Source of the DNA: an uncultured virus (IMG/VR IMGVR_UViG_3300020056_000009)
Taxonomy: Duplodnaviria > Heunggongvirae > Uroviricota > Caudoviricetes
Reading direction: 5' to 3' (one strand)
IMG/VR virus record: IMGVR_UViG_3300020056_000009
Length of the DNA stretch: 64,000 nucleotides
Made by a program: the position numbers and the translations under genes. The notes under the pieces are model-generated. The model worked only from the letters and a program-made list of their open reading frames with translations, did not search any database and had not been told where the DNA came from. Of the stretch, positions 986 through 28,124 are shown piece after piece (within the stretch, counting starts at the first letter, position 1; each line of letters starts with the position of its first letter).

Positions 986-1339
986 ATGCTTCTAAACGAT
1001 GTGCCTGTAATTCAAGACCAAAACACCGGAGTATCTTGCTTCCCTTGGGAATCAGATATGGGTGCAGTCCACTCTTTTGACCTCAACAACTCTTCCGCTA
1101 TGACGGATTCTACTTTGGGCATGGTCGCTAAGGAAGATACCATGACGGAAGCCAATGTTACCAAAGAAGATGAAGAATCTGTCCAACAAGATGATGGTCA
1201 AGGCGAATCCGAATCAGATCTTGAAACCAAGGCTGCAGAAGGCACGACTTCCGGAATCGATTTCAAGAAGTTGGGTGTTATGGCTTTGGTAGGCGTTGGT
1301 GCTTACTCTGTTGTCACCATGATTCTTAACCGATATTGA
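986..1339 (+). CDS. acidic protein with C-terminal TM anchor
   Basis: TATA at -31; KAAEG linker followed by LGVMALVGVGAYSVVTMIL. Confidence 0.85.
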   Translation: MLLNDVPVIQDQNTGVSCFPWESDMGAVHSFDLNNSSAMTDSTLGMVAKEDTMTEANVTKEDEESVQQDDGQGESESDLETKAAEGTTSGIDFKKLGVMALVGVGAYSVVTMILNRY

Positions 1340-1376
1340 GTAAAAGTATAAATAGTAGAAGCAAGGAGTAATCATT

Positions 1377-2225
1377 ATGGCACGAGTAATCGGAAAATCC
1401 ACAGTATTGCCTGATGGACCTTACCAACCTAACCTACCTCAATTACCACAAGTCTCTTTGACTCGTGATACTTTGTCGGCTCACAACGCTATGGGTCAAT
1501 CACTCAGCGTAGCCGCCCCTCGACCCGCAGCACCCGTTATTAACACCCCTGCTTTTAATGTTCCTGAAGGTGAAGGACTTTCTCTTGAAGAAATCCTACT
1601 TGGTGGTGGATTCGGACAAGGTGTTGTTCCTAACGCTCCTCGCCCCGCACCAACCAAGATTGGTATGCCTAAACTAAATCTCAGTTCACTTCAACAATCA
1701 CGACAATCCGATTTCGATGTTAATGCTTACGCCCTTATGGGACAACGCATTACACCTGAAGGACAATACCTACGACCCAGCCATATGCAAGAAATCTATG
1801 GTGATATGGACCACACTCCCAATGTGGCTCACTTAGACCGTGTTCGTCCTGAAACTATGATGCCTACTTTTGATGTGCATCAACCCACAGAATACTTCGG
1901 TAACAACCCTGCTTTCGAAGTAGACCGTGCTGCAATTCGACCCACCAACCCCCGTCTACTTAGTAGCGGTGCCCCACAAGTGAATGTGCCTCGCACCGAG
2001 CAACGCATTCCAATCCGTGAGCGACCTGTAATTCCTGCTTCCACGCAGCCAATGGTTTCAAACTCATGGGCTAAGAACTTGGCACCTGCTAAGAAGATCC
2101 GTATGGAAGTTGAGCGTGTAGCCCCACCTGTCCGAAACTCTGACATGAAAGGACTCAGCACTTCCTTTGGAACAGGTAATGGTCGAATGTTTGGGGCTGA
2201 CGCCCACCTACGAACCCCCTTTTGA
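1377..2225 (+). CDS. proline-rich hypothetical (putative virion) protein
   Basis: 282 aa; TATA at -30; ends FGADAHLRTPF. Confidence 0.85.
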   Translation: MARVIGKSTVLPDGPYQPNLPQLPQVSLTRDTLSAHNAMGQSLSVAAPRPAAPVINTPAFNVPEGEGLSLEEILLGGGFGQGVVPNAPRPAPTKIGMPKLNLSSLQQSRQSDFDVNAYALMGQRITPEGQYLRPSHMQEIYGDMDHTPNVAHLDRVRPETMMPTFDVHQPTEYFGNNPAFEVDRAAIRPTNPRLLSSGAPQVNVPRTEQRIPIRERPVIPASTQPMVSNSWAKNLAPAKKIRMEVERVAPPVRNSDMKGLSTSFGTGNGRMFGADAHLRTPF

Positions 2226-2236
2226 GGTGATTAAAA

Positions 2237-2784: not shown

Positions 2785-2792
2785 ATTAGGAA

Positions 2793-3077: not shown

Positions 3078-3124
3078 TTTTACGAAAGTAAAATTATAAA
3101 TAGTAAAGGCACGGAGATATCCTC

Positions 3125-3472: not shown

Positions 3473-3507
3473 ATAAATATATATAGTCGAAATGCAAAGG
3501 TGATATT

Positions 3508-4014: not shown

Positions 4015-4030
4015 TTTGGGGGTTTGCTTC

Positions 4031-4854: not shown

Positions 4855-5268
4855 ATGGTTAAGCATATGGTAGACGCTTATGTGCGTCGAGATACTAATG
4901 CTAAAAACCAATTTGATTCTCTTCAAGATGGCGAAGAAGGCTTAATCATGCCTGAAGGAATCCTTATGTCTTCCAAAGCCTTCAAAAACTCTGTTCCTCA
5001 AACCCAATATACCCTTCAAGAATTGGGAATTGATATGGCGGCTTCGCCTTATGTAGAAGCCTTAACCGTAGACCAATCTAATACTTCTGATGTTAATGTA
5101 AATCCCGTAGAAGTTCACCATCATGCCGAAGAACCCAAATTAACGATGCAAAAACCTTCTTTCCCCTCAGGTTTGATGTCTATTAATAACATGGTTAAAG
5201 AATATTGGGGACTTTTAGTGCTTGTAGGTGTCGCTGCCGTAGGAGGATATTTCATCGGTAGGCGATAA
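4855..5268 (+). CDS. C-terminally anchored protein
   Basis: TATA at -30; HHAEE linker; WGLLVLVGVAAVGGYFIGRR. Confidence 0.85.
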   Translation: MVKHMVDAYVRRDTNAKNQFDSLQDGEEGLIMPEGILMSSKAFKNSVPQTQYTLQELGIDMAASPYVEALTVDQSNTSDVNVNPVEVHHHAEEPKLTMQKPSFPSGLMSINNMVKEYWGLLVLVGVAAVGGYFIGRR

Positions 5269-6250: not shown

Positions 6251-7090
6251 ATGAAGTCTCCACTTTACTATTTTATTAGTGGTGTCGCTGCCGTTGGTGG
6301 ATTGGCTTGGGCTATCAGTCGAGGCCATTTATCTTTAGGACCTCTTGATACCGTCTTTAAAGCCGATGAATTGACCCCTGCCGATTACGAAGAAATGCAT
6401 ATCGAAAGATCGGGCAGCACTTTAGACTTTGTTCCCCAATCACTTTCCGAATCTTTCATGGGATACCAATACCTTGACTTAGAGCACACGACGATGGTGG
6501 CTAACGATAGTCCCTTTGGACCCGGTGTAATTGACCACCAATATGTTTATGAAAATGGATATGATTTAGGTTATGATGATGATGCTCTAATTGCAGATAT
6601 GAATCGATCTACTCACCCCCTCCAAGAATATGCTCCTCAAGAAATGGCAGCAGAAGCCCCCGGACAAGGAGCCCTTTATGGAAGACTTAAGGAAACTAAC
6701 TCTATTACTCCCGTTACCACCCAACCGGGAATCGGCGGCTATGGCTATGGTCCTGCTGCCAGCGGTTGGAATAAACTCCCTCCTGAAGTAAACCGTGATT
6801 TTCCTTACATGGTTTCCTATGTAAATGCACCCTTTAAGGAAGTAGTTACCGAACAAGATGGCGACAACCGATTTGGATCTCTCAGTCGTAACTCTACTGA
6901 CGGTGACCTTAATGGTCGATTTGGACAATTATCTTTAGACCCCTCTATTAACTCGGGATACACCGATGGTGCTTCTACCAAATCCCTTGATGGGTGGCGA
7001 CAATCTTACAACCTTCTCCGAATTTCCGATACTATGGTTCGAGCCATTCCTATGTCAGGTGGAGAAGAATTATTACTTAGGAGAGTATGA
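6251..7090 (+). CDS. N-terminally anchored hypothetical protein
   Basis: TATA at -31; N-terminal hydrophobic helix; FKADE and MAAEA linkers. Confidence 0.8.
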   Translation: MKSPLYYFISGVAAVGGLAWAISRGHLSLGPLDTVFKADELTPADYEEMHIERSGSTLDFVPQSLSESFMGYQYLDLEHTTMVANDSPFGPGVIDHQYVYENGYDLGYDDDALIADMNRSTHPLQEYAPQEMAAEAPGQGALYGRLKETNSITPVTTQPGIGGYGYGPAASGWNKLPPEVNRDFPYMVSYVNAPFKEVVTEQDGDNRFGSLSRNSTDGDLNGRFGQLSLDPSINSGYTDGASTKSLDGWRQSYNLLRISDTMVRAIPMSGGEELLLRRV

Positions 7091-8763
7091 TAATGGCAAA
7101 ATGGGACAATTACAGTAAACCACCTTGGGTAACCACAGGTCCACGAACTCGTATGTTGCGAAATAAGAAAAAGGTTCGCCAACAGAAGATTGCTCAAAAG
7201 CGACAAGAACGCTTGGGTGCTGAATCAAAACCTTGTGGTGATTGTGGCCGTCCAGCCACTCATTCCGCAAGAGGTGGAACAGTCAATCGTTGCGATAGAT
7301 GTTGGGATGATAATTTGCGAGCAGAATCTTTTGAAGCCCCACGCAAATCTGTATCGGCCAGCAAGCGTAAGAAAAACACCGAAATTTCCAAAATTATCAG
7401 CGATATTATGCACACTTGGGAAAAGACGGGTAAGATCGGAAAAAGCCGACCACCCACTCGAAAAGACGCACAAAAAATGGCAATTGCCGTAGCCTATTCA
7501 ATTTATAATCGCAAGACTACTAAAAAGGCAGAAACCGTCATGGATGCAGAATCCAATTTTAAGGGTAAAATTATTTGGGATTGGGAAGCACAAATTTTGG
7601 TTAATGATGACTACCAAGATATTCCCAAAAACCTGCTTAATCATGCCACAATTGATACTATCGAAAGGGCTTGTAGAGAATATGTCCAAGATTATGGAAT
7701 CTTCGAACTGTTCGAAAAAGATCAACTAACGGAAGAACTATTTATTGATACACAACAGTATCCTGATATGATTATTAATTTATCTATGGAAATGGATTAT
7801 GATGCTTTGAATCTTTCTTCGGAGGAAAACACCCCTATTATGCCCCCCATGGATTTCGGAGAAATGGCTAAGTGGCGACCCCTTGACGGCACTCCCGGAC
7901 TCAAGCGTAACCGAGCCGAAGACTTTGAAATGGTCGAATGTGGAAACTGTGATGCTACATTTTCTATTGACGAAGGCTTAGACATCGGCGGTATTGACTA
8001 CTGCGAAGAATGCTATGATTCCCGAATGTCTAAAGAAGTCGTTGAAGCCGAAACCTTTGGAGCAGAAGGCGATTGTATGCATTGTGGACAACCTCTTGAA
8101 GAAGTAGAAATCTGGGAAGATTTTAGATGTCCCCATTGTAGTAAATCCATTGGCGATATTTATCAAGGTGATGTAGATTATAAAGAAACCCTTGATGCCG
8201 AAAATTATAAACATGAGTGTATTACTTGTGGCGAAGGAATGGATGATTTAGTTGCCAAAGGTCAAACATGGAGTTGTGAATGTTGTGGATTCTTAGTAGG
8301 AACGCAAGGCAAACACCAAGGTTGTGGTTTCAACAATGATGGAGAAGTTATGTGTAATCTTTGTGCTTCAGGACAATGTGACTGTGCTCAATGCGAAGAC
8401 TGTGGTGCATCAGAAGGCGGCGACATTGAGGGTTGCGACACCTGTGGAATCTTTCAACACCACCGAGGGAGATGGTATAGCCTCCCTACCTATTCGGAAA
8501 AATTCGGTGCCCCTCTTGGATTCAACGAAATGGGCCCTCGACCCTTTTACGGCAATCCACGAAAAATTGCTATCGATCGATGGGGCAACCGCCGATTTAT
8601 TCGACGACGCAAAGATGGAACTTATATGAAAAATGTAGATGTAGGTCGTAGTATTGCTATGGACCGACGCCGACAATCACAAACTTGGGCCCCTCCTGGA
8701 TTCCGTGACCAAGGAGATGGTTCTCCATCTCTCTTAGATCGTTTTAGATTCCGACAACAGTAA
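7087..8763 (+). CDS. multi-module protein with several CxxC zinc ribbons
   Basis: 558 aa. Modules are separated by LGAES, LRAESFEAP, KKAET, MDAES, NRAED, VEAETFGAEG, LDAEN and FGAP. Confidence 0.85.
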   Translation: MIMAKWDNYSKPPWVTTGPRTRMLRNKKKVRQQKIAQKRQERLGAESKPCGDCGRPATHSARGGTVNRCDRCWDDNLRAESFEAPRKSVSASKRKKNTEISKIISDIMHTWEKTGKIGKSRPPTRKDAQKMAIAVAYSIYNRKTTKKAETVMDAESNFKGKIIWDWEAQILVNDDYQDIPKNLLNHATIDTIERACREYVQDYGIFELFEKDQLTEELFIDTQQYPDMIINLSMEMDYDALNLSSEENTPIMPPMDFGEMAKWRPLDGTPGLKRNRAEDFEMVECGNCDATFSIDEGLDIGGIDYCEECYDSRMSKEVVEAETFGAEGDCMHCGQPLEEVEIWEDFRCPHCSKSIGDIYQGDVDYKETLDAENYKHECITCGEGMDDLVAKGQTWSCECCGFLVGTQGKHQGCGFNNDGEVMCNLCASGQCDCAQCEDCGASEGGDIEGCDTCGIFQHHRGRWYSLPTYSEKFGAPLGFNEMGPRPFYGNPRKIAIDRWGNRRFIRRRKDGTYMKNVDVGRSIAMDRRRQSQTWAPPGFRDQGDGSPSLLDRFRFRQQ

Positions 8764-8795: not shown

Positions 8796-10325
8796 ATGGC
8801 AAATAATCACACCATGGTATATATCCTTTCCGATGATTATTGGGGCTTCGATGCTGGCACCAAAGATGACTCTACCGGATTCTATAAAAACACTTGGACT
8901 CTCCCCAAATCACAATATGATTCTATGGGTGACGAAGCCGACCGTGCTAAACTTTTCCGATGTGCTCTTTTCTATGTTACCGATAAAACCGACAATCACG
9001 GATTTACTCCTCTTGCTATCCAATCTCAAAACGATGTCGTTATTGTTGCAGAAGCCTCTTCTGGAACCATCAACAAGCGTATGTATACCAAAGGCCAAAA
9101 GTCTGGATACGCTACCGGTGGCGATGTTATGCGTCAAGCCGATCCTGCTGCTACCACTTTTGATGAACTCAAAGATATGACTACCAGCACCCCCGGCGAA
9201 TTCATGATTAACGAGTTTATTTTCGATAATGAATCCGCTATCAAAACCAAGGTTGAAGAACTCCAAACCGAATTGGGTCAAATCAACGCTGCTGAAACCG
9301 GTAGTTATGCTTCCGAATCAGTTCCTACTGCTGCTGCTCTCCAAGTTTCCGAACCTCTTGCTGCCGATCCTTCTACGGAAATGGCCTCTGGTTCCGAACT
9401 TATCACCGATGAACTAACCAGTTTAGATCTCTTTGCTGAAGGAGATATGACGGCTGCTGACAAGTTGGCTCTAAAGCGAAAGCGAAAGGTCGAATCCAAG
9501 ATTCGTGGCCTTAAGCGTCGTGCTGGCCGTTCCAACAAGATGGCTATGTTAGAAATGGATGCTGACACTAACGCTATTATTCAATTTGAAGAAGGTGGTT
9601 ACTCTTCGGCATCTGTCCCACCCTCTGATATTCACTTTGGTTCCGAAACCGAAGCCTCACAACTTATGACTACGCAAGCCGTTGGTCAAGCCGGTGCAGA
9701 TTACGACCACGAAATTCATTACCGTGCTGACACCTCCGGTGAAGAATGTCCTCAATGTGGTAAGCCTACTTGGGACACCGAAACAACACGCCACGATACT
9801 TGGCATCAATGTGTTGATTGTAAAATCGCATGGCTTCCTGATAGTGATGAATATATTTCCTTCCAAGAATTAGATAAGCATCACCGTGCTGAAGGTCGAA
9901 AATATGGAAAGCGACAACGCTTCGATCACATTAAGGGTAACTCTCGATATGTGGCTCGCAACGCTAAGGGACAATTTATTAGCAATGTTGGCGTAGGTAA
10001 CTCTATCCGAGCCGACCTCCGAAGTAGTGCTAAAACTCAACAACCTGTTGGTTTCCGAAACCAAGGCGATGCTATGGTTCGACGAGCCGAAGCCGCACCA
10101 TCAGTAGTAGATGCTGCTGAACCTATGGATTACCAACCTTATGAATTTATTGACGAAATGGAAACCGGAGAATACATTTCTTCTGATGACTTCATGACTC
10201 TGCTTGCTGAAACCGTTGATGGCATGGCACTTCGCTACCGCCCACCAATGTATCGTAGCCCAGCGGCTATGCTTACCGCAGGTGTCGTTCTCGGTGCTTT
10301 GGGTCTAAAACTTCTTAAGAAGTAA
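8796..10325 (+). CDS. multi-module protein with C-terminal TM anchor
   Basis: TATA at -30; about 10 AE/SE/AD linkers; CPQCG..CVDC ribbon; shares a module with 7087..8763; ends AMLTAGVVLGALGLKLLKK. Confidence 0.85.
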   Translation: MANNHTMVYILSDDYWGFDAGTKDDSTGFYKNTWTLPKSQYDSMGDEADRAKLFRCALFYVTDKTDNHGFTPLAIQSQNDVVIVAEASSGTINKRMYTKGQKSGYATGGDVMRQADPAATTFDELKDMTTSTPGEFMINEFIFDNESAIKTKVEELQTELGQINAAETGSYASESVPTAAALQVSEPLAADPSTEMASGSELITDELTSLDLFAEGDMTAADKLALKRKRKVESKIRGLKRRAGRSNKMAMLEMDADTNAIIQFEEGGYSSASVPPSDIHFGSETEASQLMTTQAVGQAGADYDHEIHYRADTSGEECPQCGKPTWDTETTRHDTWHQCVDCKIAWLPDSDEYISFQELDKHHRAEGRKYGKRQRFDHIKGNSRYVARNAKGQFISNVGVGNSIRADLRSSAKTQQPVGFRNQGDAMVRRAEAAPSVVDAAEPMDYQPYEFIDEMETGEYISSDDFMTLLAETVDGMALRYRPPMYRSPAAMLTAGVVLGALGLKLLKK

Positions 10326-13894: not shown

Positions 13895-14884
13895 ATGGAT
13901 TACAACATGGCTCCATCAGGTTTGGAATCGTCTTTTGATGTTCTTACCGAAGAATCAACTTACATGGGTGCATTTGGATTAGTCGCTGGTGCTTTTATCG
14001 GTGGACTTCTTACTATGCTTCCTTTTTATCGCTTAGGTCGTGCTGCTGAACTTGGCCGCACCGCTGCTACGGCTCTTACAGGTGGCTACCTTATTGTTAC
14101 TTCTCGTGCTCGTCCTACTGGCTACGGCAAGGCTATGAACTTTGCAGGCACCGCCCTAATTCTTTCATCAGTTGTGCAAGTAGCAGGTATGGTATCTCCT
14201 CGAATCGGTGGATTCTTGGGACAATATTCTGCTGAAGAAGTGCTTCCTCAATCCGGTAGCGGATCTGTAGTCGGTCAAGAAACGGCCACTCATTCTTATT
14301 CTGATATCAAGAATGCTGAAGATTGGGATACCGAAGCCTCCACCGCTCGACTCCAACAAAGAGGTATGGATGACCTTCCTATGTCTTCCATTCATGAGGG
14401 AGCCCCACTCGGTCACGGAGTCTTCCAAGATTTCGGTGCTCAAGAAGTAGTTACTCCTACTGGTGGTGTAGACCAAAACTTTGGTGGCAGTATGATTGAA
14501 TCCACCGCCGTTATGAACCCTGTGGAAATGGAAATGGGCGATTATGTTTCTGCTGCTGACACTATGGGATGGAATGCTCAAAACCTTGGTCGCAGTAATC
14601 CCCTTACCATGACTACCTATACTCCCAACACACCCCCGGTTAATTACAACGCTGAAGAACCAACTATGGGTGTTGGCACCCCTAACCCTGTTGTGCAAGA
14701 AGTTGCACCTCACATGAAACCCCCAACCACCGCAGATTCTGGAGAATCTTACATTCTCGGATCTCACCGAGTTGTAAATCCTGGACAGCCCATGCAATAT
14801 TATGGTGCTGAAGGCTTATATTCCACTACTATTGGTAACCATGTTCGTGGTGCTGAAGGAAACGGTTCCGTTTTTGGAATGTAA
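13895..14884 (+). CDS. membrane protein with linker-punctuated low-complexity tail
   Basis: TATA at -30; N-terminal TM segments, then YSAEE, KNAED, FGAQE, WNAQN, YNAEE, YGAEG and RGAEG. Confidence 0.85.
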   Translation: MDYNMAPSGLESSFDVLTEESTYMGAFGLVAGAFIGGLLTMLPFYRLGRAAELGRTAATALTGGYLIVTSRARPTGYGKAMNFAGTALILSSVVQVAGMVSPRIGGFLGQYSAEEVLPQSGSGSVVGQETATHSYSDIKNAEDWDTEASTARLQQRGMDDLPMSSIHEGAPLGHGVFQDFGAQEVVTPTGGVDQNFGGSMIESTAVMNPVEMEMGDYVSAADTMGWNAQNLGRSNPLTMTTYTPNTPPVNYNAEEPTMGVGTPNPVVQEVAPHMKPPTTADSGESYILGSHRVVNPGQPMQYYGAEGLYSTTIGNHVRGAEGNGSVFGM

Positions 14885-15305: not shown

Positions 15306-15896
15306 ATGAATTTGCGAAGCACTCTTGTTAATGAGTATACTGTCGGCGGTTCTCTCCTTCTCGTTGGATTTGGATTCTTTAGCACTCGCTTTGCCGATAT
15401 TCTATCTTACCGTGTTACCACACTCCCCTCAATGATTCCTGTTGTCGGTGGAAAAGTAGTTACTGTTGGACGCATCTTAGGAGTAGTTCCCGCCACACTT
15501 GGTTTGGCAGTTCTTTTCCGTAAGGCTCGTGAAGTGCCTGTAATGTCTGACCTTGAAAACCTACCTCTCGTCCGAACCGTTGTAAATTATGTTGATGATG
15601 TCGCAGAAGATGTCTCTTCAGAATTAGTTTTGCAACCTAAAAACATTACTATCGATCTAAGTGCCGAAGATTTTGATGCTGAACAAGCCCTTCTTTGTGC
15701 TGAGCACGATGATTACTTTTCCGCTTGCGGTTGTGAAAAGGCCGTTGAAGAAGTAGCCTCTGAAACTGAAGTCAAGTCAGCAGAAGTTAAGGGAACTTCC
15801 GGTTCTCCTAAGCAACAAGCATGGCGAGCCTGTGTCCGAGATGCTAAGGGCGACATGGCTGAAGCCAAGCGAATGTATAAATCTATGGGCTATTAA
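15306..15896 (+). CDS. membrane protein with C-terminal basic helical module
   Basis: N-terminus paralogous to 14942; LSAEDFDAEQ and VKSAE linkers. Confidence 0.85.
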   Translation: MNLRSTLVNEYTVGGSLLLVGFGFFSTRFADILSYRVTTLPSMIPVVGGKVVTVGRILGVVPATLGLAVLFRKAREVPVMSDLENLPLVRTVVNYVDDVAEDVSSELVLQPKNITIDLSAEDFDAEQALLCAEHDDYFSACGCEKAVEEVASETEVKSAEVKGTSGSPKQQAWRACVRDAKGDMAEAKRMYKSMGY

Positions 15897-16208: not shown

Positions 16209-16856
16209 ATGTCAATGAGAAGCCAAGTATATGAATGGAGTAACCTACAAGCAAGTAGTAACCAACTACGACGCACATCAGCCGATGCACCTGTCGCACT
16301 CACCGCAAACCGTGAGTATGACCTGTTCACTGGTGGCGTAGGTAACAACATTACCAAGCCCGCCGAAACGACCGCCACCCAATTCATCGTAATTGAGGAC
16401 ATCGCTGCATCACCTGTTATTGGTAGTGCTGTGCAAATCCGTATCAACACCACGGATTACTTCCAAAACCCCGATGTTACCGATATGCTCGGTATTCCTG
16501 GATTGGCAAGCCCATACCCCCGTGGTTCACCTTCCTCAGTCGATACGACTGTAGTGGGTGCCACCTCTGCAGGTTCAGAAAACATCCTAAAGTCTTTCGA
16601 CCTTTACCCCGATGTTTATGTCCTCCCAGGTCAAACCTTCCAAATCCTTTACACCTCCCGTGACGGAACGACTGCCACCACGACTGAGATCGTATCTTGT
16701 TTCCTCAAGTATACCCTCTACGATGGTCCAGACGCTCTAATCGCCAACAAGTTGCTCGAACTTGGTGTCACCATCAACCCAAACAATGTTGATTGGTATA
16801 AGCGAAGCCTCATCGAACAACAACAACGCTCCCGTGTCGCTGGAGGTCAAGCCTGA
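16209..16856 (+). CDS. putative major capsid protein A (beta-rich, possibly single jelly-roll)
   Basis: Tandem paralogue of 16895..17524 (MSMRSQVYEW, NNITKPAETTAT, LYPDVYVLPGQ, KYTLYDGPDALIANKLLE). C-ending codon bias suggests high expression. The fold is inferred. Confidence 0.6.
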   Translation: MSMRSQVYEWSNLQASSNQLRRTSADAPVALTANREYDLFTGGVGNNITKPAETTATQFIVIEDIAASPVIGSAVQIRINTTDYFQNPDVTDMLGIPGLASPYPRGSPSSVDTTVVGATSAGSENILKSFDLYPDVYVLPGQTFQILYTSRDGTTATTTEIVSCFLKYTLYDGPDALIANKLLELGVTINPNNVDWYKRSLIEQQQRSRVAGGQA

Positions 16857-16894
16857 TTCCGACACGGAATTAATTAATATAGGAGTTGAAAAAT

Positions 16895-17524
16895 ATGTCA
16901 ATGAGAAGCCAAGTATATGAATGGGACGCAAGCCGTGGAACTGCAATGAATCCTGCCACTCAAGTTGGAAAGCGACTTTCCATCTTCGTCGGTGGTGCAG
17001 GTAACAACATTACCAAGCCTGCTGAAACAACCGCAACCGAATTCGTCGTTATCGAAGATATCGCAGTAACACCTACCCTCGGTGTTCACTCCGCTGTCAC
17101 CGACGGCACCGAAATCCGTGGTCTCCGCTCCAGCGGCGGTATCGCAGGTCCTCGTGCCTATGTCCAAGTCCGTATCAACACGACTGACTACTTCCTCGAC
17201 CCAGATAACATCCCCAACGATGGTATCCCTGGTGCAGGTTCACCTTACCCACGAAGCATCAACTTCCAACCTTCCTTCAACCTATACCCCGATGTATATG
17301 TGTTGCCAGGTCAAGTTTGGGACGCTCTCGTAACCTTCTACAACAGCGGTGCTTTCGCAACCACGACCTCCGCTGCTGTCGGTGAACTACAATGTTTCGT
17401 CAAGTATACGCTTTACGACGGTCCTGACGCCCTCATCGCCAACAAGTTGTTGGAAATGGGTATCTCGATCAACCCAGGCAATGTAGACTGGTATAAGCGT
17501 TCTCTCCTTCAAGCACAAGCCTGA
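16895..17524 (+). CDS. putative major capsid protein B
   Basis: ATG at 16895 after an AGGAG SD; near-identical termini to 16209..16856; strong C-ending codon bias. Confidence 0.6.
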   Translation: MSMRSQVYEWDASRGTAMNPATQVGKRLSIFVGGAGNNITKPAETTATEFVVIEDIAVTPTLGVHSAVTDGTEIRGLRSSGGIAGPRAYVQVRINTTDYFLDPDNIPNDGIPGAGSPYPRSINFQPSFNLYPDVYVLPGQVWDALVTFYNSGAFATTTSAAVGELQCFVKYTLYDGPDALIANKLLEMGISINPGNVDWYKRSLLQAQA

Positions 17525-19582: not shown

Positions 19583-20932
19583 ATGCCTGAAGTTCCACCT
19601 GCACCTTTACATATTACTACCCCTATGGGCCCTATTGAAGTAGACCCCGATAACATCCGAGATATTTATGGTTATGTGGCTAAGGCTACCAGTATGGATA
19701 TTCAAGACGAAGAAATTAAAAACTTTTTAGGAGATTCCGTAGAAACTAAGCGAGATTATTACAGCACCAAAGCCTATGTTGGTTGGGGTCATGCTATGAT
19801 GGCCGTTATTAACCGAGATTACGATATTGTTAAAATTACCAACTATAATAATCGCATGACTGCCGAAGCCAGCCCTATTTGGTTGGATGAACGCATCCGA
19901 TCTCGTGAAGGAGAAGAAACTCGCATCAAAGTTCCCCATCGCATGACGATGTATTTATCCCACAAAGATAATTCTCATGACCTTGTAATCACCTTTTATC
20001 CTTATGATACCTATGAGTTAGACATTTGTTATCATTTTGTTACCAATGGTAATTTTGATTACACTCATTGGAAAAACGAAATCAAAGAATCCTTTTCTAA
20101 GGAAGGTATTTACAAGAACCGTGCCATTACTGCTGATTTTGAATTTTTAGATTATCAAGATGTTTCTTGGGAAGATATTATCATTGAAACCAAGCCTCTC
20201 CAAGACCTCAATCGGAATGTTATTGATTTTATTTCCAACATGGACACCTACAAAAATTACAACATGAGGCTCAGTCGAGGTATTTTGCTTACGGGCCCTC
20301 CCGGAACGGGAAAGACTCTTTGTTGTAGTATTCTCATTAATCAAACCGATATTACCGTTATCTATGTTACTCGTAACGCCGTTACCGAAAGAGGACAAAT
20401 TGATGATTTGTATAAGTTAGCCCGATTCTTGAGTCCTTCTTTAGTAGTCTTTGAAGATATTGATACTTTAGGTGGTATCGATCGAGAAGAATCTGACCAT
20501 CCTCTCTTGGGAGAGTTCCTCAATTGCTTAGCAGGCGTAGAAGAAAATGATGGTGTTATTACTTTGGCAACCACCAATTATCCTCAACATTTAGATTGGG
20601 CTTTGGCAGATCGCCCCGGACGATTTGATGTTCGGATTAACTTTGGATATCCCGATAAAGATTCTCGCCAAAAGATTTTCTCCAAGTATTTGGCAGATTG
20701 TGAACAAGAAAAAATTAATTATTCTAATTGGGCCAAGAAAACTGATGGCTATTCGGGGGCCTATCTCCGAGAATTAGCCAATCTATCAATCATGATTAGC
20801 ATGGAATCCGAAGGAATTTTAACGGACAAAATTATTGAATCGGCCTTTGCAGAATTGGAATCACAACGCAAAATTGTAGCCAAAGAAAAGCGATTAATTC
20901 GCCATGATGACGAATCCCCGGATTATTATTGA
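19583..20932 (+). CDS. AAA+ ATPase (classic AAA clade; PAN/FtsH/CDC48-like ATPase module)
   Basis: Walker A GILLTGPPGTGKT, Walker B LVVFEDID, sensor ATTN, SRH DRPGRFD, TDGYSGA. Confidence 0.9.
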   Translation: MPEVPPAPLHITTPMGPIEVDPDNIRDIYGYVAKATSMDIQDEEIKNFLGDSVETKRDYYSTKAYVGWGHAMMAVINRDYDIVKITNYNNRMTAEASPIWLDERIRSREGEETRIKVPHRMTMYLSHKDNSHDLVITFYPYDTYELDICYHFVTNGNFDYTHWKNEIKESFSKEGIYKNRAITADFEFLDYQDVSWEDIIIETKPLQDLNRNVIDFISNMDTYKNYNMRLSRGILLTGPPGTGKTLCCSILINQTDITVIYVTRNAVTERGQIDDLYKLARFLSPSLVVFEDIDTLGGIDREESDHPLLGEFLNCLAGVEENDGVITLATTNYPQHLDWALADRPGRFDVRINFGYPDKDSRQKIFSKYLADCEQEKINYSNWAKKTDGYSGAYLRELANLSIMISMESEGILTDKIIESAFAELESQRKIVAKEKRLIRHDDESPDYY

Positions 20933-20971: not shown

Positions 20972-22423
20972 ATGGCTAAGACTCGCCCCGAAGTAGATGA
21001 ATTAGTAGGTCAAAACATTGGTTTCCTTTTTGGAACCATGATGGATCTTCGTATGTGTCCTACCGAATTAAAGCATACTGGTAATGTCGAAGTGGGAGAA
21101 TTCAAAATGGTGGCTCACTTCCCTGCCGTTCACGAACAGAATGGCACCGAAAAACAATATCTTGCTAAGCACCGAACTTTCCGTGGTGGTCTTTATGCTA
21201 CTTATCAAGATGGACCCTACAAGATTGATGAAATCATGTGGGATGCTACCAACCGTGCAGGAGTTCACATGGTCACTAAGACCAAGTATGGACAAATTGT
21301 AGAGTTCCCTACCCAACCCTCTAAGTCTATGCCCGGAAGCATGAAATTAATGGTGCAAGAATATGTCGAATCACTCAAAACCCCCGGTTTTGTAATTCGT
21401 TGTAGTGGTCTTGGTGGTGCTTTGGAACCCATTCAAGGCAAGACTGATGAATATGATTTAGTTTTACTCAATGGAGATATCAAGTGTCCTAAGAAACTAC
21501 ATAGCCATGTTCCTGCCAAATATCACGCTGAAGATGATGGTCGCTTCAATGCTCAAATTGGATCTTGGAGTTTCCATGCCGAAGAAATTCTAAGTGGTAG
21601 TCCAGGATTACAACACCATGGTCTAACACGAAGGCGGAACATTACTGAAGTTCAAGATATTGAAATCGTAGTTAATATTAATTGGGAAACCGATGAAATG
21701 GTAGATACTAAGTATCAACAAGACCTTCAGAGTTGGGCAAACAATGTGATTGATTATTGGATGCATGACAACCGTGAAAAAATTATTGATGATGAATATG
21801 GAGATTGGTCTGACACTTGGTATTCTTCTGACGATGGACACGATGAGGATATTGAGGTTAGCGTCACATTTAATTGGGAATTGGATCAACTAAATAAAGG
21901 TGGCTCCGATTACGACGGAGCAGGCTATTGGGAATATGATGCCGAAAACTTCGAGGCTTCACAAAGATCTGGTAGCGATGCTGGTATGGGACTTTGCGGA
22001 GGCTGTAGAAAACAAGGACAACTAATGAACTTTGGTCGCCGCAAGATGTGTTACGATTGTGCCATGGAACGATATGGGGCTGAAGAATTTGCAGCCGTTA
22101 GTCCTTATGGACCCAACCTTCAACGAGAAAAGAAAAATATCGCTGATGCCGTAAGTGCTTCTTATGGAAGTTTCAAGTGGTCAGATTGCGTTTGGGGGCC
22201 ACATTTCCTACGATTTTCGGGAGAAGGTTCCAACAAGTTCTATTCCGTTTGGGTATGGGAACGCAGCCCCGGAGTTTACACCGCTATGGGTGCTTATGGT
22301 GGCTTAGGACAAAACCCCCGTTTGTTTAACATCACGCAAACTGCCGATCTTCAACGAGCCGTCAATGAGGCTCAAAAGAAGATGAACCAAAAGCAAAACA
22401 AAGGCTACGGTGTTTACAACTGA
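20972..22423 (+). CDS. multi-module protein with C-terminal WGR-like domain
   Basis: FLRFSGEGSNKFYSVWV..AYGGLG..KKMNQKQNKGY resembles a WGR domain. Linkers: YHAED, FNAQ, FHAEE, YDAENFEAS, YGAEEFAA. Confidence 0.8.
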   Translation: MAKTRPEVDELVGQNIGFLFGTMMDLRMCPTELKHTGNVEVGEFKMVAHFPAVHEQNGTEKQYLAKHRTFRGGLYATYQDGPYKIDEIMWDATNRAGVHMVTKTKYGQIVEFPTQPSKSMPGSMKLMVQEYVESLKTPGFVIRCSGLGGALEPIQGKTDEYDLVLLNGDIKCPKKLHSHVPAKYHAEDDGRFNAQIGSWSFHAEEILSGSPGLQHHGLTRRRNITEVQDIEIVVNINWETDEMVDTKYQQDLQSWANNVIDYWMHDNREKIIDDEYGDWSDTWYSSDDGHDEDIEVSVTFNWELDQLNKGGSDYDGAGYWEYDAENFEASQRSGSDAGMGLCGGCRKQGQLMNFGRRKMCYDCAMERYGAEEFAAVSPYGPNLQREKKNIADAVSASYGSFKWSDCVWGPHFLRFSGEGSNKFYSVWVWERSPGVYTAMGAYGGLGQNPRLFNITQTADLQRAVNEAQKKMNQKQNKGYGVYN

Positions 22424-22432: not shown

Positions 22433-23365
22433 ATGGTTGATGTAGTCTATCACAAAGATGGCACACCCCAATGTAGCCAATGCAATACCGGTTACGAAGA
22501 TGCTGAAAGGGCTGAATACTGTTGTTCCTCTTGTGTAAATTGTGGATTTAGACAACATGGAATGCACGAAAGAGCAGCAGAATGTTGTCCTTGTTTTTGT
22601 GAGCCCAACGCTTGTTTCTGTGATGAAAACGGAGATTGTTGTCAAGATTATCTCAAAGATTATGGTGCAGAATGGCACCATGCTAACACCACTTGTCATG
22701 AATGTGGTTCTGACGATGTAGACTACACCAAAGTTTATTATTGTTCGCAATGTGGTGAAGACGATTTGGTTCCCGGTGAACAATGTTCTTGTGGTAACCT
22801 CGTCGGTAGCAAAGATTATTTTGAGCAAATGATTTGTGGTGACTGTGATAACGCATGGATTGAAGATGATTATTCCGCAGAAGTTATGTGGGATGATGAT
22901 AGTTGGACGCAAGTAAAAGATAACACCGTTGCTGATATTATTGCCGACGAATATCTTGATATGGGTGAAGATTATGATGATGCTGATGAATACGCTCGTC
23001 GGGCTGCCAAGAAAATGAATGCTGAATCCCCCGGAACAACTTCTTATTATATTGATGAAATGGTTTCTATTAAAGATGAAGAGGATTTCCAAACCTTGTT
23101 TAATCTTTACTTAGATCTTTACGATGATATTGCTAATATGGAATCTGCTAATATGATGAAAACTCAACGCTATCTTAGAGCCAAGCAACAATTGGCGGAG
23201 TTATCGGCTCGTCTTGATGAACTTCAAACGGAAGTAAAAATTATGCCCGAATTTGAATTCGAGGCTGATAATAGAATTATGTTGGGTCGTGGCCTTACCA
23301 TCGGAGCGATTGGCCTTTATGGATTAATCGCCTATTGGGGACTCAAATTAATTAGGAAAGTATAA
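22433..23365 (+). CDS. Cys-rich multi-module protein with C-terminal TM anchor
   Basis: Many CxxC pairs; YGAEW, YSAEV, MNAES and FEADN linkers, then GLTIGAIGLYGLIAYWGL. Confidence 0.85.
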   Translation: MVDVVYHKDGTPQCSQCNTGYEDAERAEYCCSSCVNCGFRQHGMHERAAECCPCFCEPNACFCDENGDCCQDYLKDYGAEWHHANTTCHECGSDDVDYTKVYYCSQCGEDDLVPGEQCSCGNLVGSKDYFEQMICGDCDNAWIEDDYSAEVMWDDDSWTQVKDNTVADIIADEYLDMGEDYDDADEYARRAAKKMNAESPGTTSYYIDEMVSIKDEEDFQTLFNLYLDLYDDIANMESANMMKTQRYLRAKQQLAELSARLDELQTEVKIMPEFEFEADNRIMLGRGLTIGAIGLYGLIAYWGLKLIRKV

Positions 23366-25203: not shown

Positions 25204-25205
25204 TT

Positions 25206-25796
25206 TTGACTGGGTATAACATTACCTGTGACCCCGGCGATTTATACAATCGCAAGTGTTATGTAACTACCAGTTCCGGACAAAAACAAGAAATTATTGG
25301 TTACGATTCCGCTGGTAATCCTATTAGTAAGGGCACCACTACGGCAGCGGGAACCGCATGGCAACCTAATCTCACGGTCTTAGACCAATCGGGTAATGCC
25401 TATCAACCTTATGGCTCTGCCGGTCTTCCTTTTACTCTTTCTGGTATCGCAGGTATCTTTGGAATCACACCTTCTTCAGGTGCCGATCCACAAGATTGGA
25501 AATATATCACGGAACACGCCCCCGGCTCTTACTCTCGCAAAATGTATAATCAACGAGTCTGTAATCCTCTATGGCCTACTTTGGGTTGTCGAACTGAGCC
25601 TACGGATAATACTAAATTACAAACGGCTCCACAAGAAGTAGAATCAACAGATTCTACTTGGTATCAAAAATGGTTTTCGGCAGAATCTGAAGGCATCAAT
25701 TGGAAATCTATGGGACGAGGGGCTCTTATCGGAGGTCTTGCTGCCGTTGGTTTTACTAAGTTGTTAGATATGGCGGGAGGCAAATCTCGTGACTAA
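25206..25796 (+). CDS. C-terminally anchored protein
   Basis: TTG after an AGGAGG SD; WFSAESEG followed by GALIGGLAAVGF. Confidence 0.8.
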   Translation: MTGYNITCDPGDLYNRKCYVTTSSGQKQEIIGYDSAGNPISKGTTTAAGTAWQPNLTVLDQSGNAYQPYGSAGLPFTLSGIAGIFGITPSSGADPQDWKYITEHAPGSYSRKMYNQRVCNPLWPTLGCRTEPTDNTKLQTAPQEVESTDSTWYQKWFSAESEGINWKSMGRGALIGGLAAVGFTKLLDMAGGKSRD

Positions 25797-26091
25797 ACAA
25801 GAAAAATCTCTTATTTCTGAAAAGAGATCTGAAGAAGAAGAAGCCAAAATGTCGGCTCGTCGTAAGGCTTGGCGAAATCTCTTAATTCCTGCCGTTGGTT
25901 CGGCGGCTTTCTTTACCAGCACTATGTTGGGAATTATTCGCACCAAGAAACAACACGGTTGGCCGAATGGTTCTTTTTATATTTCTGATTATTTGCTTAT
26001 GGGCATTCCTTTCTTAATTTTAGGATTAGGTTTTTATGAAGAGTTTGCTACCGATCGAGAATCAATTTTTAATTCGGAGGCGTCAGAATGA
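25789..26091 (+). CDS. small membrane protein (2 TM)
   Basis: GGGAGG SD; hydrophobic; ends FNSEASE. Confidence 0.75.
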   Translation: MTKQEKSLISEKRSEEEEAKMSARRKAWRNLLIPAVGSAAFFTSTMLGIIRTKKQHGWPNGSFYISDYLLMGIPFLILGLGFYEEFATDRESIFNSEASE

Positions 26092-28124
26092 TTGTAGGTT
26101 CTCAAGTTTCTCTCCCCCAAGTTCATTCTTGGCAAGTTTATTTAGCCAAAGAACCTAATTTTTTTGGTGTCGAAGAAGGTGACCAAATTAATCTTGATGA
26201 TTATGAATTGGTTGCTAAAATTGATGGAGAATACCCTCCTTTTCAAGTGGCTCAAAATATTGATGATGCTTGGGTAAACAACGATACTACTTTAGAAGTT
26301 TATGGTGATAACCAAAACGGTTGTCGTTCTTTATCTGTCAGCGATATAGTTTGTAACACCATTACTGGACAATGTTATATTGTTAATAACATTGGATACC
26401 ATTTATTATCCAAAGCCGAAAGTTCTAAATCTGCCGAAGGAGATCCAGAATGGATGACCAACAAAGACCTCCGACGACGATTATTTTTGAAATCTCAAAA
26501 ACAAGGTGGAGTTCCCAAAATCTGTGAAGTTTGCGAAGATTCCGAATCTAATTTGCGTTATTATCAAGAAGATGGCGAACAATTTGTAGTTTGCAAAGAT
26601 TGTTTAGAACAAAGCATGGACGATTGGAAAAATATTTTTGGACGCCGTCCTACTTGGAATGCTGAGTTTAATTCTTCTACTGATGCTTACGCTATGGCTT
26701 ATTCTCAAGGTCATTCTCATGGCCGTAATCAACAACCTTACGACCCCAAACTTACTAAAGAAGAGCGAAATGTCTTTATCACAGCATGGAAAAACGCTGA
26801 AGTAGACAACAACGATCGCTTTTGGGTAGACCTTACTTGTCCTTGGTGTGGTAAACCCTACGACGGCACCGAAGTCTTAGACGAATACGAAGGTTGGATT
26901 GTGCATTATCGTTGTGCGGCCTCTGATAACTACAAAGCCGAAACCTTTGGGGGTAACTTTAGTGAAACTATGGAAGGCCAAATTACTTACGAGGTTTCCT
27001 TCACTTCTTCTCTCCCTATGGACCAAGATTATGATTATGATGATAATATAATTCAAGATTATGTAGAAGAACTTATTCGTGATGATGGATCTCGAAAAGG
27101 AATCCAATCTTTTGATTTTGTTATGGGTAGCGGTTGGTATTCTGGTTCCCACATTAATGGCACAGTAACATGGTGGACAGGAAATTACTCTGCTGAAACC
27201 TTTGAAGCCCAAGAATACTATTATGGGTTGGGTGATTATTACGAGGAAGACCCAGACTTGTGGGAACATTGGGACAAATATAGAATCAGGCATAGAGTTC
27301 GGGATGCGATTTTAAAGATGCCTACTGATAAGGCTTGGGAATACATTATTGAGATTGATAGTCATGATGGTGCTATATCAGAAGAAGAAAATGAGGCGTG
27401 GGAAACAGCCTTAGCCAACAAGGATTTAGAAGCCGCAGTCCAAAATCTAATTATTGAAAGGGGTTATATTAACGAAGGTTGGGGGACAGGAATTATCAAC
27501 GAATTAAAAGACCATAATTACTACCGAGCCGAATCAAATATAAAAACCTTTAAATGTGGTTTATGTTGGGCAGAATTACCAGTTAATTTATTGATGGATG
27601 GGGATTTAGTTGCTGATAAATTTGGCATGGGTGTCGCACATATGTGTCATCCTTGTTATTATCGAGTTGATATCGATGAGTCTGATGAACTTATGGATTA
27701 CAATTCTAAAATTCCACAATATCAAAAACCTTGGTCAGAATCTTGTTCCATTTGTGGAGAAGATCCAGATCACATTTGTTTTGAAGCCCCCTCTTACGGT
27801 AATTATTATGGGGCTTGCTTACTTCCTGATGGCTCTTGCACCGAAACCAGTTTAGAAATGTGTCGTGCCTTAGGCGGTAATTTCCAAGGCCCCGGCACTT
27901 CTTGTTATGCTGATGCTGGTTGGGCTAAACCCCGAGTTATGAGGGCAGAATCATCGAAAGGTCTGGGGAAAGGATTAACTATTGGTATTGTCGCAGGTAT
28001 CATTTCGGGTTTGGTAACCACAGTTTTTGGAACGGTGATTTCTGAGATTCTTTTGGACCGACTTCGTGAAGATCCAGAATTAGAAATTACGGATGAAGAA
28101 GTGGATTCCACTAATACACCATAG
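26088..28124 (+). CDS. multi-module protein: YodL-like N-terminus, zinc ribbons, Cys-Gly module, C-terminal TM
   Basis: RSLSVSDIV (YodL-like); GACLLPDGSC..C..LGGNFQGPGTSC module. Linkers: KAES, KSAEG, WNAEF, KNAE, YKAETFG, YSAETFEAQ, YRAES, FEAP, MRAES. Confidence 0.85.
   Translation: MIVGSQVSLPQVHSWQVYLAKEPNFFGVEEGDQINLDDYELVAKIDGEYPPFQVAQNIDDAWVNNDTTLEVYGDNQNGCRSLSVSDIVCNTITGQCYIVNNIGYHLLSKAESSKSAEGDPEWMTNKDLRRRLFLKSQKQGGVPKICEVCEDSESNLRYYQEDGEQFVVCKDCLEQSMDDWKNIFGRRPTWNAEFNSSTDAYAMAYSQGHSHGRNQQPYDPKLTKEERNVFITAWKNAEVDNNDRFWVDLTCPWCGKPYDGTEVLDEYEGWIVHYRCAASDNYKAETFGGNFSETMEGQITYEVSFTSSLPMDQDYDYDDNIIQDYVEELIRDDGSRKGIQSFDFVMGSGWYSGSHINGTVTWWTGNYSAETFEAQEYYYGLGDYYEEDPDLWEHWDKYRIRHRVRDAILKMPTDKAWEYIIEIDSHDGAISEEENEAWETALANKDLEAAVQNLIIERGYINEGWGTGIINELKDHNYYRAESNIKTFKCGLCWAELPVNLLMDGDLVADKFGMGVAHMCHPCYYRVDIDESDELMDYNSKIPQYQKPWSESCSICGEDPDHICFEAPSYGNYYGACLLPDGSCTETSLEMCRALGGNFQGPGTSCYADAGWAKPRVMRAESSKGLGKGLTIGIVAGIISGLVTTVFGTVISEILLDRLREDPELEITDEEVDSTNTP

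Follow-up and report, generated by a model that had tools for sequence, protein, structure and literature searches.

The locus and its relatives

The DNA analysed here is a stretch of 64 000 nucleotides (the window) from an uncultured virus (IMG/VR record IMGVR_UViG_3300020056_000009). The 64 kb are densely coding, and 79 open reading frames (ORFs) remain after overlap filtering; these were called mechanically, with the longest ORF taken and overlaps of more than 60-70 bases disallowed. Positions 986-28124 hold a block of 36 co-oriented plus-strand genes, mostly orphans and many of them encoding small membrane proteins, in which Pfam and PHROGs recognize only two GT2 glycosyltransferases, an AAA ATPase and a WGR domain. 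The block surrounds a paralogous pair of genes for probable jelly-roll capsid proteins (16209-16856 and 16886-17524, plus strand; 70-79% identity to relatives). The proteins of this block are punctuated by a short motif centred on Ala-Glu (AE), which is the subject of this work. A sequence-only reading of the window had described it in a degenerate form and had inferred a processing signal by which a viral protease would release small domains from membrane-tethered polyproteins, with a capsid-docking or sorting signal as the alternative. The analysis below establishes where the motif occurs and what it separates, and weighs how it may be read.

Four related viral contigs (G001-G004; 123-166 kb) encode close relatives of the capsid pair. 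G001 and G002 are related genomes of ~160 kb; two of the four contigs are classed with inverted terminal repeats, and G004 is classed as a provirus. Positions 986-33689 of the window correspond to 66.8-100.8 kb of G001, and the block itself has syntenic counterparts at 66.8-96.4 kb in G001 and at 68.9-92.7 kb in G002. The window belongs to a large virus with linear DNA of ~120-170 kb.

Enrichment of the Ala-Glu motif

Expected counts were obtained from 300 per-protein shuffles of the block (36 plus-strand proteins, 8726 residues), and the other 43 proteins of the window served as the comparison set. AE occurs 79 times in the block against 44.5 in the shuffles (z = 5.9; none of the 300 shuffles equals it) and 54 times against 46.0 in the rest of the window (z = 1.25), so that the enrichment over shuffled sequence proposed by the sequence-only reading is present. 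It is the second most over-represented residue pair in the block at gaps of 0-3, behind C..C; an AE is present in 29 of the 36 block proteins and [FYMKWLH]-x-A-E in 20. Nearly all of the excess is due to [F/Y/M/K]-x-A-E (34 against 7.0 in the block, 9 against 6.7 in the rest of the window), because AE without F, Y, M or K two residues before Ala is not enriched (45 against 36.9 in the block and 45 against 39.7 elsewhere in the window). The F/Y/M/K class was picked after the pooled site profile had been seen; the aromatic class, which was pre-specified, gives 19 against 3.9 for [FYW]-x-A-E in the block (z = 7.7) and 8 against 4.2 in the rest of the window. Downstream of the motif, AE-x-F is found 10 times against 1.5 in the block and twice against 1.5 outside it.

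The original degenerate pattern, [FYWHMLK]-x-[AS]-[EDQ], does recur in the plus-strand proteins of the block (106 against 56.3; z = 6.2; matched by 0/300 shuffles), with 87 against 69.2 elsewhere in the window. Its Ser, Asp and Gln forms prove to be too broad and only the core A-E holds: [FYMK]-x-S-E (10 against 6.6), [FYMK]-x-A-D (7 against 6.4) and [FYMK]-x-A-Q (8 against 3.7) are not counted as enriched in the block, [FYMK]-x-S-E is modestly raised in the block of G002 (17 against 6.9) and [FYMK]-x-G-E is depleted (2 against 7.8 in the block of the window). The reversed pair EA is not enriched (40 against 44.7 in the block, 50 against 46.4 in the rest of the window), and AD (42 against 40.5 and 50 against 52.8) and AQ (24 against 24.1 and 42 against 34.8) are flat. 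Because EA is not enriched, the signal does not reflect helix composition, and a helix or composition artefact is ruled out by EA, AD, AQ and GE together. A motif at the DNA level is also ruled out: the Ala codons at the sites are mixed (GCA, GCT, GCC and GCG), which places the signal at the protein level.

The matching blocks of the related genomes are enriched to the same extent, with [FYMK]-x-A-E found 45 times against 8.4 in G001 and 35 times against 6.7 in G002 (z = 10-13 across the three blocks); outside these blocks there is only a mild excess (43 against 31.3 in G001 and 57 against 31.9 in G002). Among 93 homologues of the mosaic protein encoded at 20972-22423 (described below), AE reaches 809 against 341.5 and [FYMK]-x-A-E 519 against 66, with EA at 288 against 343. 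The counts in this homologue set are inflated by relatedness, an effect of which the window-only shuffles and the internally controlled junction tests are free. The motif is therefore enriched and conserved across the virus family, which answers the check on related contigs that the sequence-only reading had called for. No account of such a motif turned up in the literature, for which most subscription journals were outside coverage.

To obtain a residue profile, 253 AE sites were pooled from the window block and its counterparts in G001 and G002. The position two before Ala is F, Y, M or K in 114 of the 253 and is depleted in G, I and P; after Glu, T or S is enriched, followed by Phe. With Ala and Glu designated P2 and P1, the 114 strong sites have Tyr (32), Lys (28), Met (28) or Phe (26) at P4, a variable residue at P3 (Gly 18, Ala 14, Glu 14 and Ser 14 being the most frequent) and T, G, S, E, D or A at P1' in 83 cases, while the enriched Phe lies at P2'. 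The consensus of the junction is [F/Y/M/K]-x-A-E followed by [T/S/G/E/D]-F-x-A.

The motif at junctions between interchangeable cassettes

When the 93 homologues of the 20972-22423 protein are compared side by side, whole cassettes are present or absent between fixed AE sites. All 4278 pairwise alignments together yielded 278 distinct large insertions (at least 20 residues, with well aligned flanks), of which 189 start and 181 end no more than three residues from an AE junction; for 149 this is true of both ends. A random position lies that close 10.1% of the time, and for control dipeptides the number of insertions with both ends so placed was 0-14, the highest being that for EE, which overlaps A-E-E. 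The same holds for local alignments of proteins that are not orthologous, taken from the window, G001 and G002: 27 stop exactly on the Glu of AE, compared with at most eight at each neighbouring offset, and 65 of 580 internal alignment boundaries lie within two residues of an AE junction.

The position of the seam was located in an AE-anchored breakpoint test, in which 1199 distinct contexts of 32 residues were compared pairwise. In pairs that share only the upstream side (n = 970) the identity is 0.90 at P4 and 0.65 at P3 and drops to 0.22 at P1' and 0.14 at P2'; in pairs that share only the downstream side (n = 736) it is 0.18 at P4 and 0.23 at P3 and climbs to 0.48 at P1' and 0.87 at P2'. 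Since the half-shared pairs switch identity between P3/P4 and P1'/P2', the seam in ancestry falls between Glu and the next one or two residues. Of 18 dipeptides compared, AE gives the largest number of half-shared pairs and, at 3.64, also the largest ratio of these to fully shared ones; the dipeptides that come next overlap the motif or lie beside it.

The WGR cassette illustrates the arrangement. In the window it follows ...YGAE and begins E-F-A-A-V-S-P-Y-G, and an ORF of G001 opens with the same cassette as M-T-D-F-E-A-M-S-V-Y-D-A-G; where the cassette ends a protein it lacks AE (...KGYGVYN and then the stop codon), while internal copies carry ...KGYQTYSAE. The motif behaves as the joint of two independent pieces, because cassettes at a protein end are without AE, internal ones have it, and the part after Glu, x-F-x-A, moves together with the cassette that follows. 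A zinc-ribbon cassette (N-F-E-A-S...M-E-R-Y-G-A-E) likewise recurs with AE on both sides in the otherwise unrelated proteins P0091-P0093. The length of a cassette between strong sites has a median of ~85 residues (10th-90th percentile 33-187), and the kinds encountered are zinc ribbons, the WGR domain, basic segments and short Gly/Pro-rich peptides. The mosaic proteins of the block thus consist of functionally independent units with a constant motif at the joints.

A Gly/Pro-rich cassette, ~30-45 residues long (...P-V-I-P-N-x-G-G-x-x-S-A-L-G-S-G-x-G-V-P-Q-W-Y-G-A-E), is more frequent in the set than any other. It is found in homologues P0011-P0044 and in G1_90734 (G001 90734-92245) in up to three copies per protein, with 34 copies of one form, and it resembles a released peptide more than it does a domain.

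Between orthologues at 28-50% identity some sites are fixed in position and others shift within variable segments, with the number per protein staying high; such turnover is the usual evolution of short functional motifs in flexible regions. Five independent lines confirm that the motif marks the junctions between interchangeable cassettes. The proposal that it falls at module boundaries is borne out by the insertions, the alignment ends, the breakpoint in ancestry and the modelled linkers described in the following section.

Predicted structure of the mosaic protein encoded at 20972-22423

The protein encoded at 20972-22423 (plus strand; 483 residues) consists of a conserved N-terminal domain, a middle domain, a zinc-ribbon cassette and a WGR domain, with four junction motifs between them. 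Its 93 homologues in public metagenomes, on contigs of up to 169 kb, have cassettes swapped at AE. The first junction is Y-H-A-E (residues 184-187; 21521-21532), in which K-Y-H-A-E is invariant in 47 distinct homologues, and the second is F-H-A-E (residues 201-204; 21572-21583). The third, Y-D-A-E (residues 322-325; 21935-21946), is followed by N-F-E-A and the start of the zinc-ribbon cassette, and the fourth, Y-G-A-E (residues 368-371; 22073-22084), by E-F-A-A and the start of the WGR cassette.

Two AlphaFold2 models were made in this work, for the capsid pair and for this protein, and both are of middling confidence. In the model of the mosaic protein, which was based on the 93-sequence alignment, all four sites lie in segments between folded domains with a predicted local distance difference test score (pLDDT) below 50. 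The low-confidence segments are residues 183-227 (bar two) and 307-374, the first two junctions falling within a stretch at 183-213 that is wholly below 50; the flanking domains reach pLDDT 70-96, and just after the fourth junction the score exceeds 90. The C-terminal WGR domain is confident from residue 375. It is recognized by Pfam (E = 1.3e-5; 25.6 bits against a cut-off of 22), its modelled fold (residues 391-483) matches 2ra8, the WGR domain of PARP-3 and PARP-1 in VIA with Z values of 9.2, 8.8 and 8.4, respectively, and it matches a WGR protein in BFVD (E = 6.1e-4). The overlay of the sites on the model therefore agrees with the idea of linkers for these four; copies of the motif inside the WGR domain, to which we return below, do not.

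The N-terminal domain had been considered as a 3C-like self-releasing protease on account of its invariant H49, D86/D91, C144-S145, G148-G149 and H179, followed by K-Y-H-A-E. This is unsupported: G001 and G002 have the motif and lack the domain, and in G003 the domain is present without AE after it. It gave no sequence match in the PDB and no Atlas hit, and Foldseek against the PDB and BFVD found nothing; the VIA list for the model was filled by the WGR domain.

Other motif-bearing proteins and tail anchors

Several further plus-strand proteins of the block are mosaics. The protein at 7087-8763 (558 residues) contains several CxxC zinc-ribbon cassettes and eight AE, six of them [FYMKWLH]-x-A-E (strong sites at 7213-7224, 7315-7326, 7522-7533, 7540-7551, 8056-8067 and 8191-8202), and its blocks of homology with G2_69819 and G1_110231 end at ...KRNRAE or just before. 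The tail-anchored protein at 8796-10325 (509 residues; seven AE; strong sites at 9429-9440, 9882-9893 and 10200-10211) has a cassette, AEGRKYGKR..., in common with G1_41271, and the alignment starts at AE. In the Cys-rich protein at 22433-23365 (310 residues, with a hydrophobic C-terminus; seven AE; strong sites at 22661-22672, 22871-22882 and 23015-23026) the cassette VMWDDDSW...KKMNAE recurs between AE sites in P0003, P0004 and P0007. The largest number of sites is found in the tail-anchored protein at 26088-28124 (678 residues), which has nine AE, seven of them strong (26427-26438, 26655-26666, 26790-26801, 26931-26942, 27186-27197, 27522-27533 and 27939-27950); its local homology with G1_94913 starts at AE, and its last site lies four residues ahead of the anchor.

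The motif is also found outside the mosaics, beside membrane anchors and in single-domain proteins. The membrane protein at 13895-14884 (plus strand; 329 residues) has six AE with strong sites at 14225-14236, 14309-14320, 14645-14656 and 14801-14812; three of its sites, namely Y-[NSG]-A-E-E-P, [YF]-G-A-E and one that lies nine residues from the C-terminus, are conserved in position in the orthologues from G001, G002 and G003 (28-41% identity), and the others turn over. Another membrane protein, at 15306-15896 (plus strand; 196 residues), carries six AE in its acidic C-terminal half (15657-15668, 15672-15683, 15693-15704 and 15774-15785). Two small tail-anchored proteins on the plus strand have a site upstream of the anchor (986-1339, K-A-A-E at 1229-1240, 11 residues ahead of it; 4855-5268, H-H-A-E at 5119-5130), and a conserved protein at 25206-25796 (plus strand; 196 residues; 62-69% identity to relatives) has F-S-A-E at 25674-25685 before a hydrophobic C-terminus.

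Eight block proteins were flagged as tail-anchored in a crude Kyte-Doolittle hydropathy test (one hydrophobic helix, no more than about 35 residues from the C-terminus), and in five of the eight an AE lies within 30 residues upstream of the anchor. The sequence-only reading had named seven proteins with the motif just before an anchor; four of these pass the test (starting at 986, 4855, 24334 and 26088) and the other three have weaker hydrophobic C-termini. Its further suggestion of a place near C-termini is not borne out as a special enrichment, since the final 15 residues of the proteins contain 13 AE where the density of AE in the block predicts 15.7.

The related genomes encode an ATPase of the ArsA/Get3 family (G001 46482-47309, L011:6473-7615; also in G002, G003 and G004) that scores above the Pfam cut-off for ArsA_ATPase in all four (E = 1e-61 to 2e-64); the gene lies outside the window. 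The Get3 family delivers tail-anchored proteins to membranes in eukaryotes and archaea. From its family membership, the virus enzyme could insert the tail anchors of the virus or could be an arsenite-pump ATPase; a virus-encoded insertion factor of this kind would be unusual.

Probable capsid proteins and other features of the virus

The AlphaFold2 model of the capsid pair is a β-sandwich with a mean pLDDT of 68.9. The best VIA matches are the capsid protein of SPV1 (6oj0; Z = 7.7, root-mean-square deviation 3.5 over 137 aligned residues) and HHIV-2 (6h82; Z = 6.2), Z values that fall in the range that the tool calls common, and Foldseek with the same model returned nothing at E ≤ 0.001. SPV1 and HHIV-2 are membrane-containing archaeal viruses. 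On the strength of the model, the paralogous pair are probably jelly-roll capsid proteins. Two distant paralogues are encoded at 30836-31537 and 31537-32718, the latter with a long N-terminal extension, which makes four paralogues in this one genome.

Few of the 79 window proteins are recognized by Pfam overall, and PHROGs contributes almost nothing beyond it. The minus strand encodes a full-length large subunit of archaeal-type DNA polymerase D (DP2; 41569-45042), with three Pfam DP2 domains (E down to 1e-108) and 56-59% identity to ORFs of G001 and G002, as well as an MCM-like ATPase and a DinG-like helicase (51489-53171 and 60815-63049), where Pfam finds the DinG-like helicase and the match to the MCM P-loop stays below the cut-off (E = 5e-4). 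Further Pfam matches are the two GT2 glycosyltransferases, an AAA+ ATPase within the block (19583-20932, plus strand; Pfam AAA, E = 1.8e-21; 44-47% identity in G001 and G002), a dCMP deaminase, SAP domains, a PP2C phosphatase and the one WGR domain. Pfam scans of 195 of the 203 ORFs of G001 add TBP, PCNA, ERCC4, ribonucleotide reductase, PolX, ligase, primase, the ArsA/Get3-family ATPase, three C5 methyltransferases and a weak HerA-like match. Genes for a tailed-phage capsid, portal or terminase were not detected by Pfam or PHROGs among the window proteins and these 195 ORFs.

Four fibre-like Gly/Thr-rich proteins (34445-39457, plus strand) have only short N-terminal or internal stretches in common with much longer proteins of G001 and G002 (57-75% identity over 71-88 residues), which suggests that their receptor-binding parts have been swapped. 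The motif had been called inconspicuous in the fibres and DP2; the four fibre-like proteins have one AE between them, and DP2 has eight AE, two of them [FYMKWLH]-x-A-E. A protein of 893 residues at 54076-56757 (plus strand), with no homologue in G001 or G002 by BLAST, combines two small C-G-x-C-G-G motifs with a long low-complexity tract of Gly, Ser, Gln and Asp and an acidic coiled region in which eight AE are found.

When genomes were searched with DP2, a contig of 136 kb matched at 68%, one that is binned with a bacterial metagenome-assembled genome (MAG) and probably comes from the same virus group; the best cellular match was from a Hadarchaeota MAG at 36%. Related contigs number in the hundreds, and further ones of the group are deposited under cellular names in bacterial or archaeal MAGs (L030, in a Rickettsiales MAG, P0151, P0173 and P0183), probably through mis-binning. 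No described virus group with PolD, jelly-roll capsid proteins and a Get3-like ATPase turned up in the literature, under the same restriction on subscription journals, and the lineage that carries the motif itself seems to be undescribed.

Interpretation of the junction motif

The explanation that we favour, at about an even chance of being correct, is that the AE motifs are sites at which an endoprotease cuts polyproteins after Glu. It is preferred because the motif acts as a joint, because its profile is protease-like and because there is a phage precedent for cleavage after Glu. The endopeptidase would recognize the junction consensus through P2 Ala and P1 Glu, together with a long or aromatic residue at P4 and a small or polar one at P1'; the profile resembles the alternating pattern of an extended strand in a protease groove. 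The mosaic strings would be polyproteins that are separated into small proteins during or after virion assembly, and in those that are tail-anchored a cut at the membrane-adjacent site would free the soluble cassettes, the anchors having possibly been inserted by the Get3/ArsA-type ATPase of the relatives. We infer the cleavage, its position after Glu and the place and time of cutting; the packaging of the cassettes as cargo and their roles as 'effectors' are likewise presumed. The earlier proposal of membrane-tethered polyproteins is partly supported, by modular mosaic strings, several of them tail-anchored, and by a protease-like residue pattern.

Several observations weigh against this explanation, the first being that the enzyme is missing from every scan. 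No Pfam protease is present among the 79 window proteins or the 195 of 203 ORFs of G001 that were scanned, PHROGs found none among 63 window proteins, and Trypsin_2, Peptidase_C48 and Peptidase_S78 each match none of the four related genomes (S78 at E ≤ 1). The S77 and S21 prohead protease families, which were covered by the general Pfam scans of the same window and G001 proteins, had no match there. For the viral protease that had been supposed to release the domains, no candidate of a recognizable protease family was thus detected in the window or its relatives; a very divergent enzyme of the C48, C5 or C57 type may be present.

The one hydrolase that can be put forward for the motif, as a weak candidate, is a conserved protein of 265 residues at 56754-57551 (plus strand) with a JAB/JAMM-like metal motif (E30, H81-x-H83, S98/S99 and D101), a hydrophobic C-terminus and Y-G-A-E at 57405-57416. 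It is 59-62% identical to its counterparts in G001, G002 and G004 and 50% identical to that in G003; in the family of 121 sequences H81, H83, S98 and S99 are invariant and E30 and D101 are at least 90% conserved. Its links to the AE motif are its conservation and its attachment to the membrane, and no others were seen. It has no sequence match in the PDB, and eight of its 30 Atlas hits are in a DUF4329 cluster (score 0.91). The residues of its metal motif (E, H-[GS]-H, S, D) follow one another as they do in the DUF4329 (Tox-JAB-2) family (PMC3482391); the protein differs in having only sub-cut-off matches and an unusually long spacing of 14 residues from H-x-H to Ser. The Pfam match to DUF4329, which weighs against the candidate by staying below the cut-off, has a best E of 0.0068 with two of five members, and one of the four genomes matches in the genome scan (E = 0.07). 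The family is, moreover, predicted to consist of nucleases rather than peptidases, and has been reported in large eukaryotic DNA viruses and some phages (PMC3482391). With family evidence this weak, we do not adopt the JAB-like protein as the protease of the motif. A cluster of this family (P0095, 84% identical) is found on 60 contigs, the longest of 104,430,999 bases.

The distribution of the motif within the JAB-like family raises a further difficulty. Of 120 homologues, 69 have it downstream of the hydrophobic segment and 22 upstream, and with sites on both sides a single protease would need access to both faces of the membrane. The AE counts of 31 against 79.8 in the core and 115 against 38.7 in the tail were set aside as evidence, the 120 sequences being close relatives. 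[FY]-x-A-E is moreover found inside the WGR cassette in many homologues, where our own mapping onto the AlphaFold2 model places it in a hairpin loop with pLDDT above 85, and a conserved K-P-A-E lies within a conserved region of the capsid proteins. Finally, all of the junction evidence is equally compatible with a motif that simply resides in linkers.

The main alternative, possible if less probable, is an uncleaved docking or packaging signal. A linker [FYMK]-x-A-E-x-F-x-A would bind a hub (the AAA+ ATPase, a membrane protein or the inside of the capsid, for example), with many copies giving avidity, and the mosaic proteins would be recruited into the particle. A docking motif in linkers would explain nearly all of the positional evidence, including its place in predicted flexible linkers, the turnover of its position between orthologues at a high number of copies and the presence of up to nine in one window protein. 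An aromatic residue combined with an acidic one is found in many known peptide-binding motifs, copies on both sides of a hydrophobic segment are easier to accept for binding than for cutting, and the failure of the Pfam, PHROGs and targeted scans to find a protease also speaks for it. Two features speak against docking. End cassettes lack the motif and internal copies have it, which marks a junction element and not a tag for each cassette, and the sharp split in ancestry between P1 and P2', in the middle of the eight-residue consensus, fits two separate ends, whereas a single epitope needs no such split. No binding partner for docking was identified.

That the motif is a passive linker or recombination seam, tolerant of any cassette join (through domain capping or in-frame recombination) and read by nothing, we regard as improbable. 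Cassettes are indeed shuffled extensively and always at these seams; the mixed Ala codons nevertheless leave no signal evident at the DNA level, and the P4, P2, P1 and P2' residues are selected across unrelated cassettes, which a generic flexible linker does not need. The occurrence of the motif outside the mosaics, by membrane anchors and in single-domain proteins, also argues against a seam.

Much less probable still is another modification, for example phosphorylation of Tyr by kinase-like proteins, reversed by a phosphatase. A PP2C-type phosphatase is encoded at 63079-63852 (plus strand; Pfam SpoIIE, E = 3e-9), the adjacent proteins at 57561-58511 and 58508-60319 (plus strand) look kinase-like by eye only (a Gly-rich loop and then V-I-K), and Tyr is the commonest P4 residue (32 of 114); yet Lys, Met and Phe, which cannot be phosphorylated in this way, are about equally frequent there, and the kinase-like pair has no Pfam or PHROGs hit. 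Chance or a compositional artefact, for which one might cite the acidic, Ala-rich proteins and the relatedness of the homologues, is counted as refuted by the shuffles, by the flat or depleted control pairs, by the internally controlled junction tests and by the repetition of the enrichment in G001 and G002, where identity to the block proteins of the window is mostly 30-50%.

Comparison with known processing systems

That structural proteins of viruses can be punctuated by a short processing-type motif is already known. In large eukaryotic DNA viruses, some of them with inner membranes, a virus protease cuts structural polyproteins at a motif of two to three residues during maturation, and the substrates include membrane proteins and DNA-binding core proteins. 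African swine fever virus pp220 and pp62 are cut at G-G-X and poxvirus proteins at A-G-X; together with the adenovirus protease, these systems use a Ulp1-like cysteine protease and Gly-rich motifs. The present virus differs in that Peptidase_C48 matches none of the four genomes, the motif is A-E and [FYMK]-x-G-E is depleted. To our knowledge, cassette shuffling on such a scale has not been described for African swine fever virus, poxviruses or adenovirus.

RNA-virus 3C-like proteases cut many sites per polyprotein with Gln or Glu at P1, a small P1' residue and a hydrophobic P4 residue. The specificity pattern at the junctions and the multiple sites per string are similar here; the difference is that no chymotrypsin-like domain was detected (Trypsin_2 in none of the four genomes). 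Neuropeptide and cyanobactin precursors, which give rise to short secreted cellular peptides, also have variable cassettes between constant flanks. They share the swapping of cassettes between such flanks with the proteins described here, in which the cassettes are mostly domain-sized and belong to a virus structural module.

In the phages SPN3US, phiKZ, 201phi2-1 and T4, virion or head proteins are cut after Glu at short motifs (PMC5694885). The targets of the prohead protease include internal ejected proteins, and extra sites in the propeptides break them into small pieces (PMC5694885). The likeness lies in the many virion proteins with a short motif ending in Glu, for which cutting is known in the phages and predicted here. 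The register of the motif does not support the direct parallel drawn in the sequence-only reading: the phage motifs are A/S/G-x-E or L/I-x-E, with a small or aliphatic residue at P3 (PMC5694885), whereas the junctions of this virus have Ala at P2 and a P4 residue that is long or aromatic. Peptidase_S78 was also not detected in the related genomes (none of four), nor any other Pfam protease among the scanned proteins of the window and G001, the capsid is probably of the jelly-roll and not the tailed-phage type, and the sites delimit shuffled cassettes, up to nine per window protein, compared with one N-terminal propeptide in the phages. By function, prohead maturation in phages and polyprotein processing in eukaryotic DNA viruses are the closest systems; by membership the present one is neither, because the motif register, the protease families and the capsid type differ.

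Significance

Taken together, these observations lead us to suggest, tentatively and as a doubtful whole, an undescribed, PolD-encoding, membrane-containing lineage of large marine viruses in which dozens of virion proteins would be strings of shuffled cargo cassettes, many of the proteins with tail anchors inserted via a Get3-type ATPase, and would be cut at [F/Y/M/K]-x-A-E by a Glu-specific protease of unrecognizable family. If the cleavage code were true, the mature protein set of an uncultured virus family could be read from sequence alone, and the motif would point to an undescribed protease specificity and probably to an undescribed protease family. The diversification of virion cargo by cassette swapping between fixed cut sites would be a route of virus evolution, and the tail-anchored proteins, taken with a Get3-type ATPase encoded by the virus, would add a new example of a virus that supplies a membrane-insertion factor of its own. 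Should the motif instead serve for docking, it would still offer a conserved and testable handle on the loading of the particles of this family.

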